From assembly GCF_003334315.1 (NCBI RefSeq), contig NZ_QOWR01000071.1: 19,819 nucleotides of DNA. The stretch is one strand, 5' to 3'. Made by a program: the position numbers and the translations under genes. Origin of the DNA: Escherichia coli. GTDB taxonomy: Bacteria; Pseudomonadota; Gammaproteobacteria; Enterobacterales; Enterobacteriaceae. The notes beneath the pieces were generated by a model. It ran no database searches. It worked only from the letters and a program-made list of their open reading frames with translations, and had not been told where the DNA came from. Shown here piece after piece: positions 9,726 through 19,819 of this stretch; the stretch's first letter is position 1, and every line of letters starts with the position of its first letter.

Positions 9726-9988
9726 CTACGCTCCTGAATCTTAAAGACAACGGCGGTGGCTACAGATAGAATTGCAAGCTTTCGTAACTCATGTCCGCTG
9801 TTGCGATGACTTCGTGTTAATCTTAACGTTATTACGGCATTGGCACGTCAGAACAAAATCTGAGAGGTGAATCCGTTGAGTATAATTATCTTAGCGACGA
9901 TTTCGACGACTCAAGAGAATAAATGACGTTTAAGCCATGAAACAAGCTAAAATCCTGCAAAAGACGAGTTTTTACGGGCGTATTTAAA

Positions 9989-15407: not shown

Positions 15408-16673
15408 ATGGCGTTAACAGATATCAAGGTCAGAACAGCCAAGCCAATGGATAAGCAGTACAAACTGACCGATGGCAGCGGTATGCACCTGCTTGTCCAT
15501 CCTAATGGTTCTAAGTACTGGCGTTTGCAGTACCGTTATGATGGCAAGCAAAAGATGTTGGCACTTGGGATTTACCCTGAAATAACACTGGCGGATGCCA
15601 GAGCACGTCGTGACGACGCGCGTAAGCTGCTAGCGAATGGCGTCGATCCGGGAGACAAAAAGAAAAATGATAAGGTTGAACAGAGTAAAGCACGAACCTT
15701 TAAAGAGGTCGCGATCGAGTGGCATGGCACCAATAAAAAGTGGTCTGAAGATCACGCCCATCGTGTGCTAAAAAGCTTGGAAGATAATCTCTTCGCGGCA
15801 CTTGGTGAGCGTAATATCGCTGAGCTAAAAACTCGTGATTTATTAGTACCCATTAAAGCCGTAGAGACATCTGGACGTCTTGAAGTGGCTTCCCGCCTTC
15901 AACAGCGCACCACGGCCATCATGCGTTATGCAGTGCAAAGCGGGTTAATTGATTACAATCCGGCGCAAGAGATGGCGGGGGCGGTTGCTTCCAGTAATCG
16001 ACAGCATCGTCCGGCGCTGGAGTTAAGGCGTATCCCTGAGTTGCTTGAGAAAATAGACAGCTATACCGGCAGGCCGTTAACCCGCTGGGCGACAGAACTC
16101 ACTCTGCTTATCTTTATTCGGTCCAGTGAGCTGCGTTTTGCTCGCTGGTCAGAAATCGATTTTGAAACGTCAATGTGGACTATCCCGCCCGAGCGAGAGC
16201 CTATTCCTGATGTGAAACATTCTCAGCGAGGATCAAAGATGCATACACCGCATCTGGTGCCGCTTTCAAAGCAGGCGCTGGCGATCCTGAAGCAGATAAA
16301 ACAGTTCTGTGGCGAACATGAGCTGATTTTTATTGGCGATCACGATCCGCGTAAGCCCATGAGCGAGAACACGGTAAACAGTGCGCTACGGGTGATGGGT
16401 TATGACACTAAGGTTGAAGTTTGCGGCCACGGCTTCCGTACAATGGCCTGTAGTTCGTTAATTGAGTCAGGACTATGGTCGAAGGATGCGGTGGAAAGGC
16501 AGATGAGCCATATGGAACGCAATTCGGTGAGGGCGGCGTATATCCATAAAGCGGAACATCTGGATGAGCGCAAGCTGATGTTGCGGTGGTGGGCGGATTT
16601 TCTGGATGCGAACCGGGAGAAAGGGATTACGCCGTTTGACTACGCGAAGATCAATCGGGGTAATGGCGAGTGA
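15408..16673 (+). CDS. P4-type tyrosine integrase (site-specific recombinase) at the leuX tRNA
   Basis: 421-aa ORF with strong SD (agggagggg) before the ATG; catalytic-domain signatures HGFR and RAAYIH (His-X-X-Arg ... Tyr); begins about 190 bp after the tRNA 3' end, the typical layout for P4-like integrative islands. Confidence 0.9.
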   Translation: MALTDIKVRTAKPMDKQYKLTDGSGMHLLVHPNGSKYWRLQYRYDGKQKMLALGIYPEITLADARARRDDARKLLANGVDPGDKKKNDKVEQSKARTFKEVAIEWHGTNKKWSEDHAHRVLKSLEDNLFAALGERNIAELKTRDLLVPIKAVETSGRLEVASRLQQRTTAIMRYAVQSGLIDYNPAQEMAGAVASSNRQHRPALELRRIPELLEKIDSYTGRPLTRWATELTLLIFIRSSELRFARWSEIDFETSMWTIPPEREPIPDVKHSQRGSKMHTPHLVPLSKQALAILKQIKQFCGEHELIFIGDHDPRKPMSENTVNSALRVMGYDTKVEVCGHGFRTMACSSLIESGLWSKDAVERQMSHMERNSVRAAYIHKAEHLDERKLMLRWWADFLDANREKGITPFDYAKINRGNGE

Positions 16674-16877: not shown

Positions 16878-17756
16878 ATGACCTCTGACAAAACCCTAAA
16901 ACAAGCGATATCAAATATCACCATCTGGCGCAAAGGCGAACAACGTGCGCCACATAAGCCATTATTGCTGCTGTACGTTCTCTCACACTATCGGCAGGGT
17001 CATGGTCGCATGTTTAACTATGGTTCTGAAATCTACGAGCCCCTGTTGGATCTCCTGGAACGTTATGGACCGCAGCGCCGTGACCAGCGCCCGGACATGC
17101 CGTTCTGGCGTCTGAAGGGCGATGGCTTCTGGGAACTACATAACGCGGAACTGTGCTCAACCAGTGGTAGCCGCCAGCCGCCCCGACGTGAACTCATTGA
17201 ATATAATGTCGCTGGTGGATTTGATGCCGATAATTTTGCGTTGGTGGCAAAAAATCACAGGTTAATTGATACGCTGGCTCAGCAGCTCCTGGAGGCGCAT
17301 TTCCCGGCCAGTATTCAGGAAGAGATCGCTGACGAGATGGGTTTTGATATTCGCACCTCTCTCCGTCAACGCGATCCGAAGTTTCGCCAGATGGTGCTAC
17401 GTGCTTACAATTATCAGTGCGCTATCTGCGGCTTTAACATGCGCCACGACAATGCGCCGATTGCTCTGGAAGCCGCTCATATCAGATGGAAGCAGCACCA
17501 TGGCCCTTGCGAAGTACCTAATGGCCTGGCATTGTGTGCAATCCACCATAAAGCGTTTGATCGCGGTTCGATTGGCCTGGATGAAAATATGCGTGTGGTG
17601 GTTTCCGGTGCGGTAAATGGTGGTGGAGTGGTACAGCGACTGTTCTGGGATTTTGCGGGAAAGGCGATTGCGTTGCCACCGGTTAAAGAAAATTATCCGG
17701 GCGAGCAGTTTGTTGAATGGCACAGAAAAGAGGTGTTCAGAGGAGAGGGAATCTGA
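16878..17756 (+). CDS. Two-domain protein: N-terminal uncharacterised (possible DNA-modification reader) domain fused to a C-terminal HNH nuclease; candidate type IV-like restriction or defence nuclease
   Basis: HNH motif readable directly in the C-terminus: YQCAICGF ... LEAAHIRW ... NGLALCAIHHKAFD. The N-terminal roughly 170 aa has no HNH features but distinctive motifs (PHKPLLLLYVL, MPFWRLKGDGFWEL). Start chosen at the first ATG (16878); the track ORF begins at a TTG at 16833. First cargo gene after the integrase. Confidence 0.6.
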   Translation: MTSDKTLKQAISNITIWRKGEQRAPHKPLLLLYVLSHYRQGHGRMFNYGSEIYEPLLDLLERYGPQRRDQRPDMPFWRLKGDGFWELHNAELCSTSGSRQPPRRELIEYNVAGGFDADNFALVAKNHRLIDTLAQQLLEAHFPASIQEEIADEMGFDIRTSLRQRDPKFRQMVLRAYNYQCAICGFNMRHDNAPIALEAAHIRWKQHHGPCEVPNGLALCAIHHKAFDRGSIGLDENMRVVVSGAVNGGGVVQRLFWDFAGKAIALPPVKENYPGEQFVEWHRKEVFRGEGI

Positions 17757-17825
17757 AATAGATTGATTTTTTTCTTTAGATTATTAAGTTAGTTATTGAT
17801 AACGGCTTTATTATGTGGAGGGTAT

Positions 17826-18146
17826 ATGGTTAGGCGTAATGTGAAATGGTTGTCTTTCTTTATTTTTATTTCTATTCTGTCTTTATTTCGCGGGTGGTCG
17901 TTTATTAAACAGTTTCATCTGTCGGCATTTACTGTACTTGCTGTATTTATTTATGCGTTGTATAGCTATATAAGAATTTCAACTTTTGTAAATAAGATGG
18001 AGTTAAATAATAAATTTATTGTTTTTCTTAGGTTGAAGAAATTTGTTTTGTTTTTTAAGCAAGGGACTAAGCTCACTATTCTGGAAAGAAATATTGTCTT
18101 TTTTTCAGTTTATATACCTTGTCTGCTTATCATGTGCTTATATTAG
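17826..18146 (+). CDS. Hypothetical small hydrophobic protein (about 106 aa, 2 predicted TM segments); may be a composition artefact
   Basis: ATG at 17826 preceded by GGAGG (17817-17821); hydrophobic stretches LSFFIFISILSLF and AFTVLAVFIYALYSYI. The region is very AT-rich, which favours F/I/L codons, so coding status is uncertain. Confidence 0.3.
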   Translation: MVRRNVKWLSFFIFISILSLFRGWSFIKQFHLSAFTVLAVFIYALYSYIRISTFVNKMELNNKFIVFLRLKKFVLFFKQGTKLTILERNIVFFSVYIPCLLIMCLY

Positions 18147-18447
18147 GTAAAATGCATGTCATTAATAAATGGTTAAATGTGGGTTTGTATAACTAATTCA
18201 TAGGTGTCATTCCAGTTTTATTAGTTAAATTTGTCGTTCTGCTGCTTCAATGTGCCGAAAATAATTTTTTGTTCTTAAATAAGTATTGGCTGATAAATTG
18301 TCTCTCCTTTAATAAAATTTGAAGTTGTTCACGGTTTATAGGGTTCTTCAATTATTAATGTTTTTTCTTTGTTAGCATCTTTCCTCAATGCTATGTATCT
18401 TTATAAAGATACGACCTAATCTTATTTGTCATTTTTAAAATCCTGTA

Positions 18448-18944
18448 TTATATTGTGAAGTATAATAAGCTAAGGAACGAGCCGAAAATAAAAACATGTC
18501 TAAATATTGCTAATCCAACCAGTTCATCAAGGCGACAGCCTTTCCATGATGCATTCCTCCAGCCTAGCTGAAACAATGTTGACCATGATAGAATAAATAT
18601 TCCGGTGGCGCTAACGGCGTCTTTCCATTCTAATGGATAGATAATCCGAAATTTCCCTGAGTAAAATCCAATCGCAATTACTATAAAAAGCACACCCAAC
18701 ATTATTAGCACTGACGCAAGAATGGACTTTCTTAAGTCATCACAATACTCTTCGAGGGAGTGTTTGTGATCATCTGGATTTAGACTGTATTTCCCCGCCT
18801 CAAGTTTTCTCTTATATTCATCCTTCTCAAGTTCAAAAGCCATCTTATTGATAGCACCAAGCGTAATAAATTTTTCCTTGTTGAAGAAAAAATAAAACAT
18901 TGCTTTATAAATATTTTCTTTTTTAGGTAGTTGTGCTGTGTTCA
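18448..18944 (-). CDS. Hypothetical membrane protein (about 165 aa; soluble charged N-terminal part plus 3 predicted TM helices)
   Basis: ORF on the minus strand with ATG at 18944 (MNTAQLPKKENIYKAMFYFFF); the track's longer version starts at a TTG at 18981. Predicted TM segments ILASVLIMLGVLFIVIAIGFY, GIFILSWSTLFQLGW and LVGLAIFRHVFIFGSFLSLLYF. No recognisable family from sequence alone. Confidence 0.4.
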
Positions 18945-18970
18945 TATTCTCATAAAAAATAAGTAACGAT

Positions 18971-18993
18971 GTTGACAGCAAGAAGCTGTCAAC
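18971..18993 (-). other. Perfect 9-bp stem hairpin between the hsdR-like remnant and the membrane-protein gene (possible terminator or leader structure)
   Basis: gttgacagc (18971-18979) / gctgtcaac (18985-18993) with a 5-nt loop, 8 nt 3' of the hsdR-like stop; the T-run lies 9 nt further on, so this is not a textbook intrinsic terminator. Confidence 0.4.
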
Positions 18994-19000
18994 ATGAAAT

Positions 19001-19366
19001 TCACATCGTCCAATGATTCGAAATAACTTCCGCTTGTTTCAAAATTAACTCCACCGCACCCGGCGTTTTATCTGGCGGATACTTATACCGACGCAGAGTC
19101 TGGCGAACCAAGATACGCAGCCTTGCACGAACGCTCTCGCGCACCTGCCAGTCAACGGTAGTTGATTGCCTCAACTTCAAGGTGACTTCTATCGCCAGTT
19201 TCTTAAGCACCTCATCCCCTAACTCTCGGACGGCACTTTCGTTTTCTGCCAGTGCGTCGTAGAAAGCGATTTCGTCAGGATTCAGGCCAAGCGCATCATC
19301 ACGCTCCATTGCAGACTGAAAATCCTTCGCCATCTGGATCAGCTCTTCAATCACCTGCGCCGTCTC
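19001..19366 (-). pseudogene. 3' remnant (about 122 codons) of a type I restriction enzyme R-subunit-like gene, truncated by IS1 insertion
   Basis: ORF ...LNPDEIAFYDALAENESAVRELGDEVLKKLAIEVTLKLRQSTTVDWQVRESVRARLRILVRQTLRRYKYPPDK... resembles the conserved HsdR C-terminal domain (DUF3387-like) as I recall it. The frame stays open upstream right to the IS1 boundary at 19366/19367, as expected for an insertion into a longer gene. Confidence 0.5.
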
Positions 19367-19819
19367 GGTAATGGTCCCAACTTATTGATAGTGTTTTATG
19401 TTCAGATAATGCCCGATTACTTTGTCATGCAGCTCCACCGATTTTGAGAACGACAGCGACTTCCGTCCCAGCCGTGCCAGGTGCTGCCTCAGATTCAGGT
19501 TATGCCGCTCAATTCGCTGCGTATATCGCTTGCTGATTACGTGCAGCTTTCCCTTCAGGCGGGATTCATACAGCGGCCAGCCATCCGTCATCCATATCAC
19601 CACGTCAAAGGGTGACAGCAGGCTCATAAGACGCCCCAGCGTCGCCATCGTGCGTTCACCGAATACGTGCGCAACAACCGTCTTCCGGAGCCTGTCATAC
19701 GCGTAAAACAGCCAGCGCTGGCGCGATTTAGCCCCGACATAGCCCCACTGTTCGTCCATTTCCGCGCAGACGATGACGTCACTGCCCGGCTGTATGCGCG
19801 AGGTTACCGACTGCGGCCT
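19367..19819 (-). mobile_element. IS1 insertion sequence, partial (right inverted repeat and insB); same orientation as the copy at 1-204; continues beyond window end
   Basis: 19367 onward reads ggtaatggtcccaacttattgatagtgttttatgttcagataatg, the reverse complement of the IS1 right end from memory (variant at 2-3 positions); the remainder to the window edge matches insB. Confidence 0.85.
19382..19819 (-). CDS. insB: IS1 InsB (transposase C-terminal part; partial CDS truncated by window end)
   Basis: Translation ...[125 protein letters not shown] matches IS1 InsB; the frame continues open to the window edge. Confidence 0.9.

Follow-up and report, generated by a model that had tools for sequence, protein, structure and literature searches.

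We analyzed a 19,819-bp chromosomal segment of Escherichia coli (contig NZ_QOWR01000071.1; the window, below, is this whole stretch of DNA), which ends within the leuX tRNA island, and focused on two small open reading frames (ORFs) near that end. The 165-codon ORF on the minus strand, here designated X, is a genuine, conserved gene of a widespread unnamed family. In Enterobacterales it directly follows the gene of a restriction enzyme R subunit, and we tentatively interpret its product as an R-linked accessory membrane protein. The 106-codon ORF on the plus strand, here designated ORF106, is unrelated to X, and the two are not a functional pair. Homologous loci and proteins are referred to by numbers beginning with L and P, respectively. 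The locus comprises the following features.

16878–17756, plus strand: gene of an EcoWI-like SBD-HNH restriction endonuclease dependent on phosphorothioate (PT) DNA (NCBIfam NF045808 PT-DNA_restrict, 445 bits; PADLOC HNH; name given by the Prokaryotic Genome Annotation Pipeline, PGAP)
17817–17822, plus strand: Shine-Dalgarno-like GGAGGG, 3–4 nt ahead of the ORF106 ATG, unchanged in the alignment with L002, L008, L010, and L011
17826–18146, plus strand: ORF106, a T-rich ORF of 106 aa (ORF call), beginning ~70 nt past the HNH gene
18099–18105, plus strand: poly-T tract within ORF106, whose variable length shifts the last ~12 codons from strain to strain (alignment)
18147–18447, no strand assigned: AT-rich noncoding spacer between the convergent ORFs, with no coding signal
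18448–18945, minus strand: X, encoding a predicted inner-membrane protein of 165 aa, terminal gene of a restriction operon (ORF; PGAP hypothetical protein WP_032161345)
18969–18995, minus strand: terminator- or attenuator-like hairpin between the hsdR stop codon and the X start, with a perfect 11-bp stem, a 5-nt loop, and a T-rich run after it
19004–19366, minus strand: C-terminal remnant of HsdR, residues 924–1044 (last 121 codons; tblastn with the intact HsdR of strain AH65)
19367–19819, minus strand: copy of the insertion sequence (IS) IS1 truncating hsdR; similarity to strains with the intact operon stops at 19366

The preliminary description of this locus, made from the sequence alone, had reported a convergent pair of small membrane proteins in AT-rich DNA. 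Both ORFs are present, the shorter running from the ATG at 17826 to the stop at 18146, and they lie, as described, between the HNH gene and the hsdR remnant in DNA with a GC content of 0.28–0.40, compared to ~0.53 in the flanks. The end given there for the 165-aa ORF, 18944, is one base short. An alternative TTG start would extend X to 177 aa, reaching position 18981.

X is a conserved gene of a widespread family

In a permutation test that preserves the type of each base change, 22 of the 35 changes separating X from its counterpart in L008 are synonymous (null mean 10.1, P < 0.0005), as are 52 of the 128 changes relative to L005 (null mean 31.6, P < 0.0005). The HNH gene, used as a positive control, was similarly significant. 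The warning in the preliminary description that AT-rich DNA may generate hydrophobic pseudo-ORFs thus does not apply to X, which is clearly coding, whereas it is apt for ORF106, where the corresponding signal is modest (P about 0.01).

Full-length homologs of X, 162–176 aa long, are retained down to 47% identity. A profile search, exhaustive over 1.84 billion cluster representatives, yielded 218 clusters at E ≤ 0.001, most of them with proteins of 155–175 aa that align end to end.

The AlphaFold2 (AF2) model of X, built from a 67-sequence alignment, has a predicted local distance difference test score (pLDDT) of 90.3 and a predicted template modeling score (pTM) of 0.80. It contains short helices within residues 12–60 and long helices at residues 64–96, 107–127, and 139–164; Kyte-Doolittle hydropathy peaks at residues 75–93 and 142–160. 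The layout is that of a helical N-terminal domain (residues ~1–70) followed by transmembrane (TM) helices at ~75–96, 107–127, and 142–164. The N-terminal domain is charged, with 14 lysine and arginine residues, which suggests a three-pass topology with the N-terminus inside. Residues W121, E141, and G155 are near-invariant across the family, and conservation peaks in TM2, the TM2–TM3 loop, and the start of TM3, the region that holds these residues and the motif SW[AS]TLF[EQ]LG. In close homologs the conserved motif reads SW[AS]TLFQLGW..SWKG..LDELV, and an N-terminal segment is kept as well.

The best Pfam-A match of X is not significant (independent E-value 0.036), NCBIfam gave no family, and neither X nor eight remote members of its family matched any family of PADLOC-DB v2, candidate families being included in the case of X. 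Structural neighbors in AFDB50 have TM-scores of 0.8–0.97 and are all uncharacterized proteins; the genera named as sources are Salmonella, Raoultella, Delftia, Aliivibrio, Pelobacter, and Paracidovorax. X does match PHROG 32029 (function unknown, 97 positions) with an E-value of 4.2e-25, residues 2–95 aligning to profile positions 2–96. This profile spans only the N-terminal domain and TM1, the same extent as the 97-aa copy of X truncated by IS elements in E. coli O104:H4. Because of this truncated copy, and because tblastn with X was negative for all of 50,697 phage records and 72,556 plasmids, phrog_32029 is probably a piece of X and does not represent a phage family, so that membership in it carries no functional information. 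A viral-contig scan likewise contained no X, and all X loci examined are chromosomal islands.

Two long members of the family, P0142 (472 aa) and P0156 (462 aa), have one more TM helix at the N-terminus, and their C-terminal extension of 250–300 aa holds further TM segments and a charged tail. PADLOC gave weak matches to their TM regions only (E-values 0.0013–0.026), the first of these being a resemblance of P0156 residues 268–401 to the Pycsar effector PycTM. With no significant Pfam domain and only this weak PycTM-like match, the fusions were discarded as a functional clue.

X follows type I and type III restriction R subunits

At every enterobacterial locus examined, X lies directly after the gene of a restriction R subunit and on the same strand; E. 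coli, Salmonella, Pantoea, Kosakonia, and metagenome assemblies are represented among these loci. The order hsdM-hsdS-DUF4268-hsdR-X was observed in L001, L002, L008, L013, L014, L029, and L004, the last of which has an FRG/PDC-S15 gene after X. In L005 the order is hsdM-hsdS-hsdR-X-DUF6615. A third architecture, in which a SNF2 helicase gene, IetA, IetS, and the type III genes mod and res precede X, is found in Salmonella (L003), E. coli (L027, L028), and two metagenome contigs (L006, L007). In Pantoea (L017) and Kosakonia (L019) the ORF layout (a 537- or 563-aa ORF, a 956-aa ORF, then X) corresponds to mod-res-X. In the window, X follows the hsdR remnant. Among the neighbors of X, PADLOC confirmed REase_III, MTase_III, IetA, IetS, PDC-S11, PDC-S15, and SduA, and a genome scan for further contexts of X yielded 3 loci.

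The R subunits of type I and type III enzymes are unrelated beyond their helicase cores; the link of X is therefore to the role of its neighbor and not to a single R lineage. Among the remote members of the family, one (33% identical) follows a short Shedu SduA_C gene, and another (30% identical) is followed by an HEPN_AbiU2 gene and an XhoI restriction-modification (R-M) system.

In the intact islands L001 and L002, X stands after a minus-strand hsdM-hsdS-DUF4268-hsdR operon. The DUF4268 gene, located between hsdS and hsdR in intact relatives (L001 13452–14645; PADLOC candidate family PDC-S11, E-value 7e-178), has been lost from the window; this domain has been tied to type IV (modification-dependent) restriction enzymes (PMC4619093; bioRxiv 10.1101/2025.02.28.640651). 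The IS1 copy of the window has removed hsdR codons 1–923 together with the operon promoter, and X is therefore orphaned there.

Some further copies of X were observed in other settings. In E. coli PigCaeca_2 (L027, 1–9488), X lies beside the integrase of a different leuX island, in which IetA and IetS were recognized by PADLOC with E-values of 1e-105 and 0. The same island is present in E. coli O104:H4 2009EL-2071 (L028), where IS3/IS30 elements beside pic cut X to 97 aa. In the selC/tRNA-Sec island of E. coli N1454, a 44-nt stretch (L032, 5001–5044) adjoins a decayed IS5 and has 95.5% identity with the central part of the X gene of type III loci; it has the appearance of a remnant of an X copy. 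In the 95–99% identity band, which comprises 194 E. coli genomes, most appear to match only this fragment, as did all eight genomes sampled.

A hairpin separates the R-subunit gene from X

The hairpin of the window has a predicted RNA folding energy of −19.1 kcal/mol (z = −4.2), equaled in stability by none of 200 shuffled sequences. Such hairpins lie 10–25 nt ahead of the X start; in the window, the start is located ~20 nt beyond the T-rich run. The type I hairpin is kept in L004 (9957–9983), L005 (7246–7272), and L008, and a compensatory change replaces a T-A pair by G-C. After type III res, the same place is taken by a different hairpin of 13 bp (L003, about 9947–9987).

Promoter-like sites ahead of X are no commoner than in shuffled sequences. 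Since there is no space for a promoter between the hairpin and the X start, X would be expressed by read-through and at a reduced level. The stem of the hairpin contains a perfect TTGACA on both strands.

ORF106 accompanies the HNH gene

ORF106 is located ~70 nt after the HNH gene in L001, L002, L008–L016, L018, and L029 and is missing from all X loci other than those with the HNH gene. On account of this constant position and its absence elsewhere, it belongs with the HNH gene and not with X. ORF106 occurs without an intact X in L010, where X is degraded (the available sequence of L011 and L012 ends before X), and X occurs without ORF106 in L003–L007, L017, L019, and L027. The two ORFs are thus convergent in the physical sense, as the preliminary description had it, whereas their co-occurrence as a pair is not supported.

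That description had credited both ORFs with two to three hydrophobic helices, which holds for X. The predicted membrane character of ORF106 does not stand out from base composition. Its grand average of hydropathy is 0.91 and its TM-like segments number three; composition-matched DNA translated at random gives 1.04 ± 0.31 and 3.2 on average. Hydrophobicity at the level of random translation leaves a membrane role of ORF106 unsupported, and accordingly we make no claim of a membrane effector. One of two flagged "membrane proteins" thus owes its appearance to base composition, which calls for caution in scans of defense islands.

Whether ORF106 is a gene at all has to be judged on mixed evidence. 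An ORF of at least 106 codons arises in only 0.6% of composition-matched gaps simulated with a first-order Markov model, and the ATG is preceded closely by the GGAGGG noted above. In comparison with Salmonella L010, 14 of 26 changes are synonymous, with omega of 0.20 (NG86) compared to 0.61 and 1.9 in the other frames, and the replacements are conservative (V/I, K/R, N/D, T/S). The permutation test gave P = 0.010 for L010 and P = 0.022 for L008 (codons 1–73); the excess is confined to this frame, other frames and gap controls being not significant. A two-codon deletion in one relative (P0028; 6 nt) is in frame. The ORF is intact at 106 aa in L001, L002, L010, L011, L014–L016, L018, and L029.

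The opposite explanation, that ORF106 is a chance open frame in T-rich DNA whose conservation reflects recent common ancestry, draws on a considerable set of observations that weigh against ORF106 as a gene. Besides the compositional level of hydrophobicity and TM count, all relatives are at least 72% identical, and identity to L008 is barely higher in the ORF (91.9%) than in the rest of the gap (~89.6%). Pooled haplotypes have 43% synonymous changes, modestly more than the 38% of the best control frame. In E. coli YA-1 (L013), a 4-nt deletion breaks the frame and leaves 47 aa; in L008/L009, 4- and 1-nt deletions break it at codon 74; and in L012 the ORF is cut short. Disruption of the frame in close relatives with conserved DNA, named in the preliminary description as a sign against coding, thus applies to ORF106 in part. 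Slippage at the poly-T tract makes the C-terminus variable, with alternative C-termini in P0026, P0028, and P0030. PGAP did not annotate ORF106 in the E. coli loci inspected, the AF2 model has a pLDDT of 50.5, and no match was found in Pfam, NCBIfam, PADLOC, or PHROGs. Finally, cloned ecoWIR is sufficient on its own, as a single-gene system, to restrict PT-modified plasmids in vivo (PMC7461809), and an EcoWI-type nuclease therefore needs no partner. We lean moderately toward ORF106 being a translated, weakly constrained, and dispensable ORF; the chance frame is the less probable explanation, yet a serious one.

Length changes at the poly-T tract and at a ATTTATTTAT repeat near 17948–17957 were observed to give ORF106 products of 47, 107, 120, and 121 aa.

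Possible roles of X

Few defense systems have been studied as closely as the type I and type III restriction enzymes, which are treated as purely cytoplasmic machines of three and two subunits, respectively. An association of type I enzymes with the membrane has reportedly been described by Holubová et al. Our preferred, though tentative, reading of the whole locus, to which we assign slightly less than an even chance, is that X is an accessory membrane protein linked to R, whereas ORF106 is a lineage-restricted, weakly constrained, and dispensable ORF. For X, the analysis establishes coding status, fold class, breadth of the family, gene order, and the hairpin, whereas the topology, read-through expression, any contact with R, and any part in defense are inferred.

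Under this reading, X would be made from transcripts that read through the hairpin, below the level of R. It might serve in the membrane as a partner or sensor, connecting the restriction motor with the inner membrane as the place of entry of foreign DNA. We give such a partner or sensor role, for which the membrane components of DNA-targeting defense systems such as Kiwa (PMC11785009) are the analogy, roughly one chance in three. It is favored because the best-conserved surface of X is a polar loop on the predicted cytoplasmic side, and because remote relatives of X also adjoin nucleases; a membrane-acting back-up effector would be less likely than a partner or sensor. A bolder version, which we regard as unlikely, is that X represents the first dedicated membrane subunit of ATP-dependent restriction enzymes: a three-helix adaptor or sensor that would bind the motor-nuclease of both type I and type III systems, stationing it at the site of DNA entry or gating it on phage-induced membrane changes, with remote relatives doing the same for Shedu and HEPN nucleases.

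Several observations weigh against X being an R-linked accessory protein. The association rests on about eight independent contexts. Two of the four remote contexts, those of a Nitrosomonas member (L022/L023) and of a member from a Pseudomonadota metagenome-assembled genome (MAG; L024/L025), are solitary among housekeeping genes, and the family is therefore not uniformly restriction-linked. In a sister hsdR lineage (77% aa identity; L030, L031), the place directly after hsdR is filled by an unrelated soluble helix-turn-helix protein of 164 aa (L030 5069–5563; L031 4484–4978). That this protein is a diverged X was rejected from the hhalign comparison (probability 0.1%), so that the slot accepts alternative cargo and is not reserved for X. 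R has been lost while X remains intact in the window and in L016, and an intact, 100%-identical X is present in strains 13C1065T, L6-21, and cM2a, where hsdR is annotated only as an endonuclease-domain fragment; in E. coli O104:H4, X is cut short and mod-res is intact. Single losses of either R or X are thus tolerated, which argues against a strict toxin-antidote relationship. Furthermore, the type III hairpin has no T-run, and the label "terminator" is therefore not secure.

In favor of the link, X has decayed by an internal deletion in Salmonella L010, where hsdR has the same break at codon 924 as in the window and the HNH gene and ORF106 are intact. In Citrobacter amalonaticus (L018, 2810–6496), hsdR and X both appear frameshifted near an intact HNH gene and ORF106 (98% identity); either R and X have truly decayed together, or a long-read assembly has introduced homopolymer errors.

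The proposal that X is an autonomous gene of defense islands, acting in the membrane in abortive infection or by blocking DNA entry and found beside restriction genes only through the clustering of defense genes, would account for the variety of its neighbors (HsdR, Res, SduA, and HEPN_AbiU2, with FRG/PDC-S15 or DUF6615 downstream), for the unrelated gene in the post-hsdR slot, for the intact X in the window and L016 after the loss of hsdR, and for the solitary members of the family. Against it stands the invariant position in Enterobacterales, after R, on the same strand, behind a hairpin, and with no room for an own promoter, across two restriction types and four genera. Phages and plasmids, the usual home of exclusion genes, gave no match to X; PADLOC gave none even with candidate families included; and the conserved polar motif of the TM2–TM3 loop is unlike that of simple pore-formers. 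We consider an autonomous X rather unlikely. The abortive-infection toxin or exclusion role suggested in the preliminary description is likewise not supported: no known effector family was matched, neither the phage nor the plasmid collection contains X, and loss of either R or X is tolerated. Its general suggestion of a link to defense holds for X, which is clearly defense-linked in Enterobacterales through the restriction R subunit, and does not extend to a membrane-effector role of ORF106.

A further idea is that X is a guardian toxin similar to PrrC, inactive in the intact restriction complex and damaging the membrane once a phage anti-restriction protein disables R. Accessory genes of restriction operons, namely PrrC in EcoprrI and the Rlo genes, have been proposed or shown to act in this way (PMC12707154; PMC4619093), the embedded DUF4268/PDC-S11 gene demonstrates that the operon accepts such cargo, and an attenuating hairpin ahead of a membrane-embedded product would hold a toxic protein at a low level. 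Yet strains deprived of hsdR keep an intact, identical X, which is difficult to square with R being the antidote, except if X falls silent once the operon promoter is gone; X has no domain in common with PrrC or RloC; and its truncation beside an intact mod-res in O104:H4 fits poorly as well. We regard such a toxin as improbable, and equally so a small membrane protein that has some role outside defense and is present on leuX islands by chance. The latter would agree with the homologs in Nitrosomonas and the MAG, whose neighbors are housekeeping genes (e.g., xseA and DUF423), and with the failure to match any known defense model. Against it, all of the approximately 14 enterobacterial loci and two of the four remote ones place X no more than 100 bp from a defense nuclease gene, far above the share of defense genes in the genome, and leuX is the most heavily occupied defense hotspot of E. 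coli (PMC12707154).

If X is indeed an R-linked accessory protein, a membrane protein that ends both kinds of operon would be an unrecognized component of these enzymes, i.e., an anchor, a sensor, or a back-up effector, and a testable role and a name would be gained for an uncharacterized family of more than 200 clusters that is in no defense catalog. The literature searched contained no description of X, nor of any membrane-protein gene placed behind hsdR or res. X is thus a candidate new restriction accessory family, and a membrane protein common to type I and type III operons is new to that literature.

Comparison with known systems

In being an extra, non-R-M gene attached to a type I hsd operon and presumably transcribed along with it, X resembles prrC of EcoprrI and the Rlo genes of Campylobacter, known accessory genes of restriction operons (PMC12707154; PMC4619093). 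The position of prrC in EcoprrI, between hsdS and hsdR, is occupied in the intact operon by DUF4268/PDC-S11, whereas X comes after hsdR. X also differs from PrrC and RloC in its three-TM, all-helical membrane model, with no ABC-type ATPase, anticodon-nuclease, or nuclease domain and no sequence relation to them, and the X family also follows type III res.

Kiwa is a membrane-embedded complex that senses phage-induced membrane changes (PMC11785009). X may be likened to its KwaA component as a small, predicted multi-pass inner-membrane protein encoded beside a DNA-acting partner, but it has no KwaA match in PADLOC, and no KwaB (DUF4868) neighbor is present in the X loci examined. In Zorya, ZorAB is likewise the membrane component of a DNA-targeting defense system.

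Among membrane proteins of superinfection exclusion and abortive infection, T4 Imm, P22 SieA, and lambda RexB are well-known examples. X is similar to them as a small helical inner-membrane protein in mobile AT-rich DNA and differs in its residence in chromosomal islands with no phage or plasmid match. Type I toxins are usually shorter than 60 aa, have one or two TM segments, and are paired with an antisense RNA, and holins are found in the context of lysis cassettes. In contrast, X has 165 aa, a soluble domain of 70 aa, and three TM helices; no Rfam small RNA was found at the locus and no lysis genes nearby.

The HNH gene of the window belongs with the EcoWI/SprMcrA-type enzymes. Its 292-aa product fits the size of EcoWI, a 33.4-kDa SBD-HNH enzyme of E. 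coli (PMC7461809), and is matched by NF045808 over its full length; relatives of the gene have the Pfam domains DNA-SBD_ScoMcrA and HNH_2. The EcoWI system as described has no small ORF downstream, and ORF106 has no known counterpart.

The island and its neighboring genes

In the window, pepA, lptFG, yjgR, ahr, and a tRNA-Leu gene are followed by a P4-type integrase gene (15408–16673). The island then contains the SBD-HNH gene, the AT-rich gap (17757–18447), X and the hsdR remnant on the minus strand, and IS1. Identical or 98%-identical DNA is carried by 127 of 5,426 complete E. coli genomes. The leuX site corresponds to defense "hotspot 37" in a review of such islands (PMC12707154).

Within the gap, the spacer at 18147–18447 has no protein match and no Rfam match. 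None of the six frames of the gap outside the ORFs has an excess of synonymous changes in the permutation test, and no annotated feature underlies the gap among the 30 matches listed (92 E. coli genomes). A gene remnant hidden in the spacer was considered and rejected, as tblastn with FRG, EcsC, DUF6615, and other genes found after X was negative. In L010 the alignment reveals a 100-bp insertion within the spacer.

The hsdR remnant corresponds to PADLOC REase_I, profile positions 912–1024 of 1029. DNA beyond 19366 matches thousands of sites in E. coli genomes; the ORF at 19382–19759 inside IS1 we take, from its translation, to be insB. In L010 (9151–9513) the same remnant, residues 924–1044, is kept and fused in frame to an ORF for a PapC usher, with no IS1. 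The shared cut at codon 924 suggests an ancestral IS1 insertion followed by rearrangement. In E. coli YA-1 (L013, 1–3065), a P4-like satellite module (Icd-like, DUF5375, primase) is located immediately upstream of the island integrase, and the leuX island of this strain may have a connection to a phage satellite or be stacked with one.

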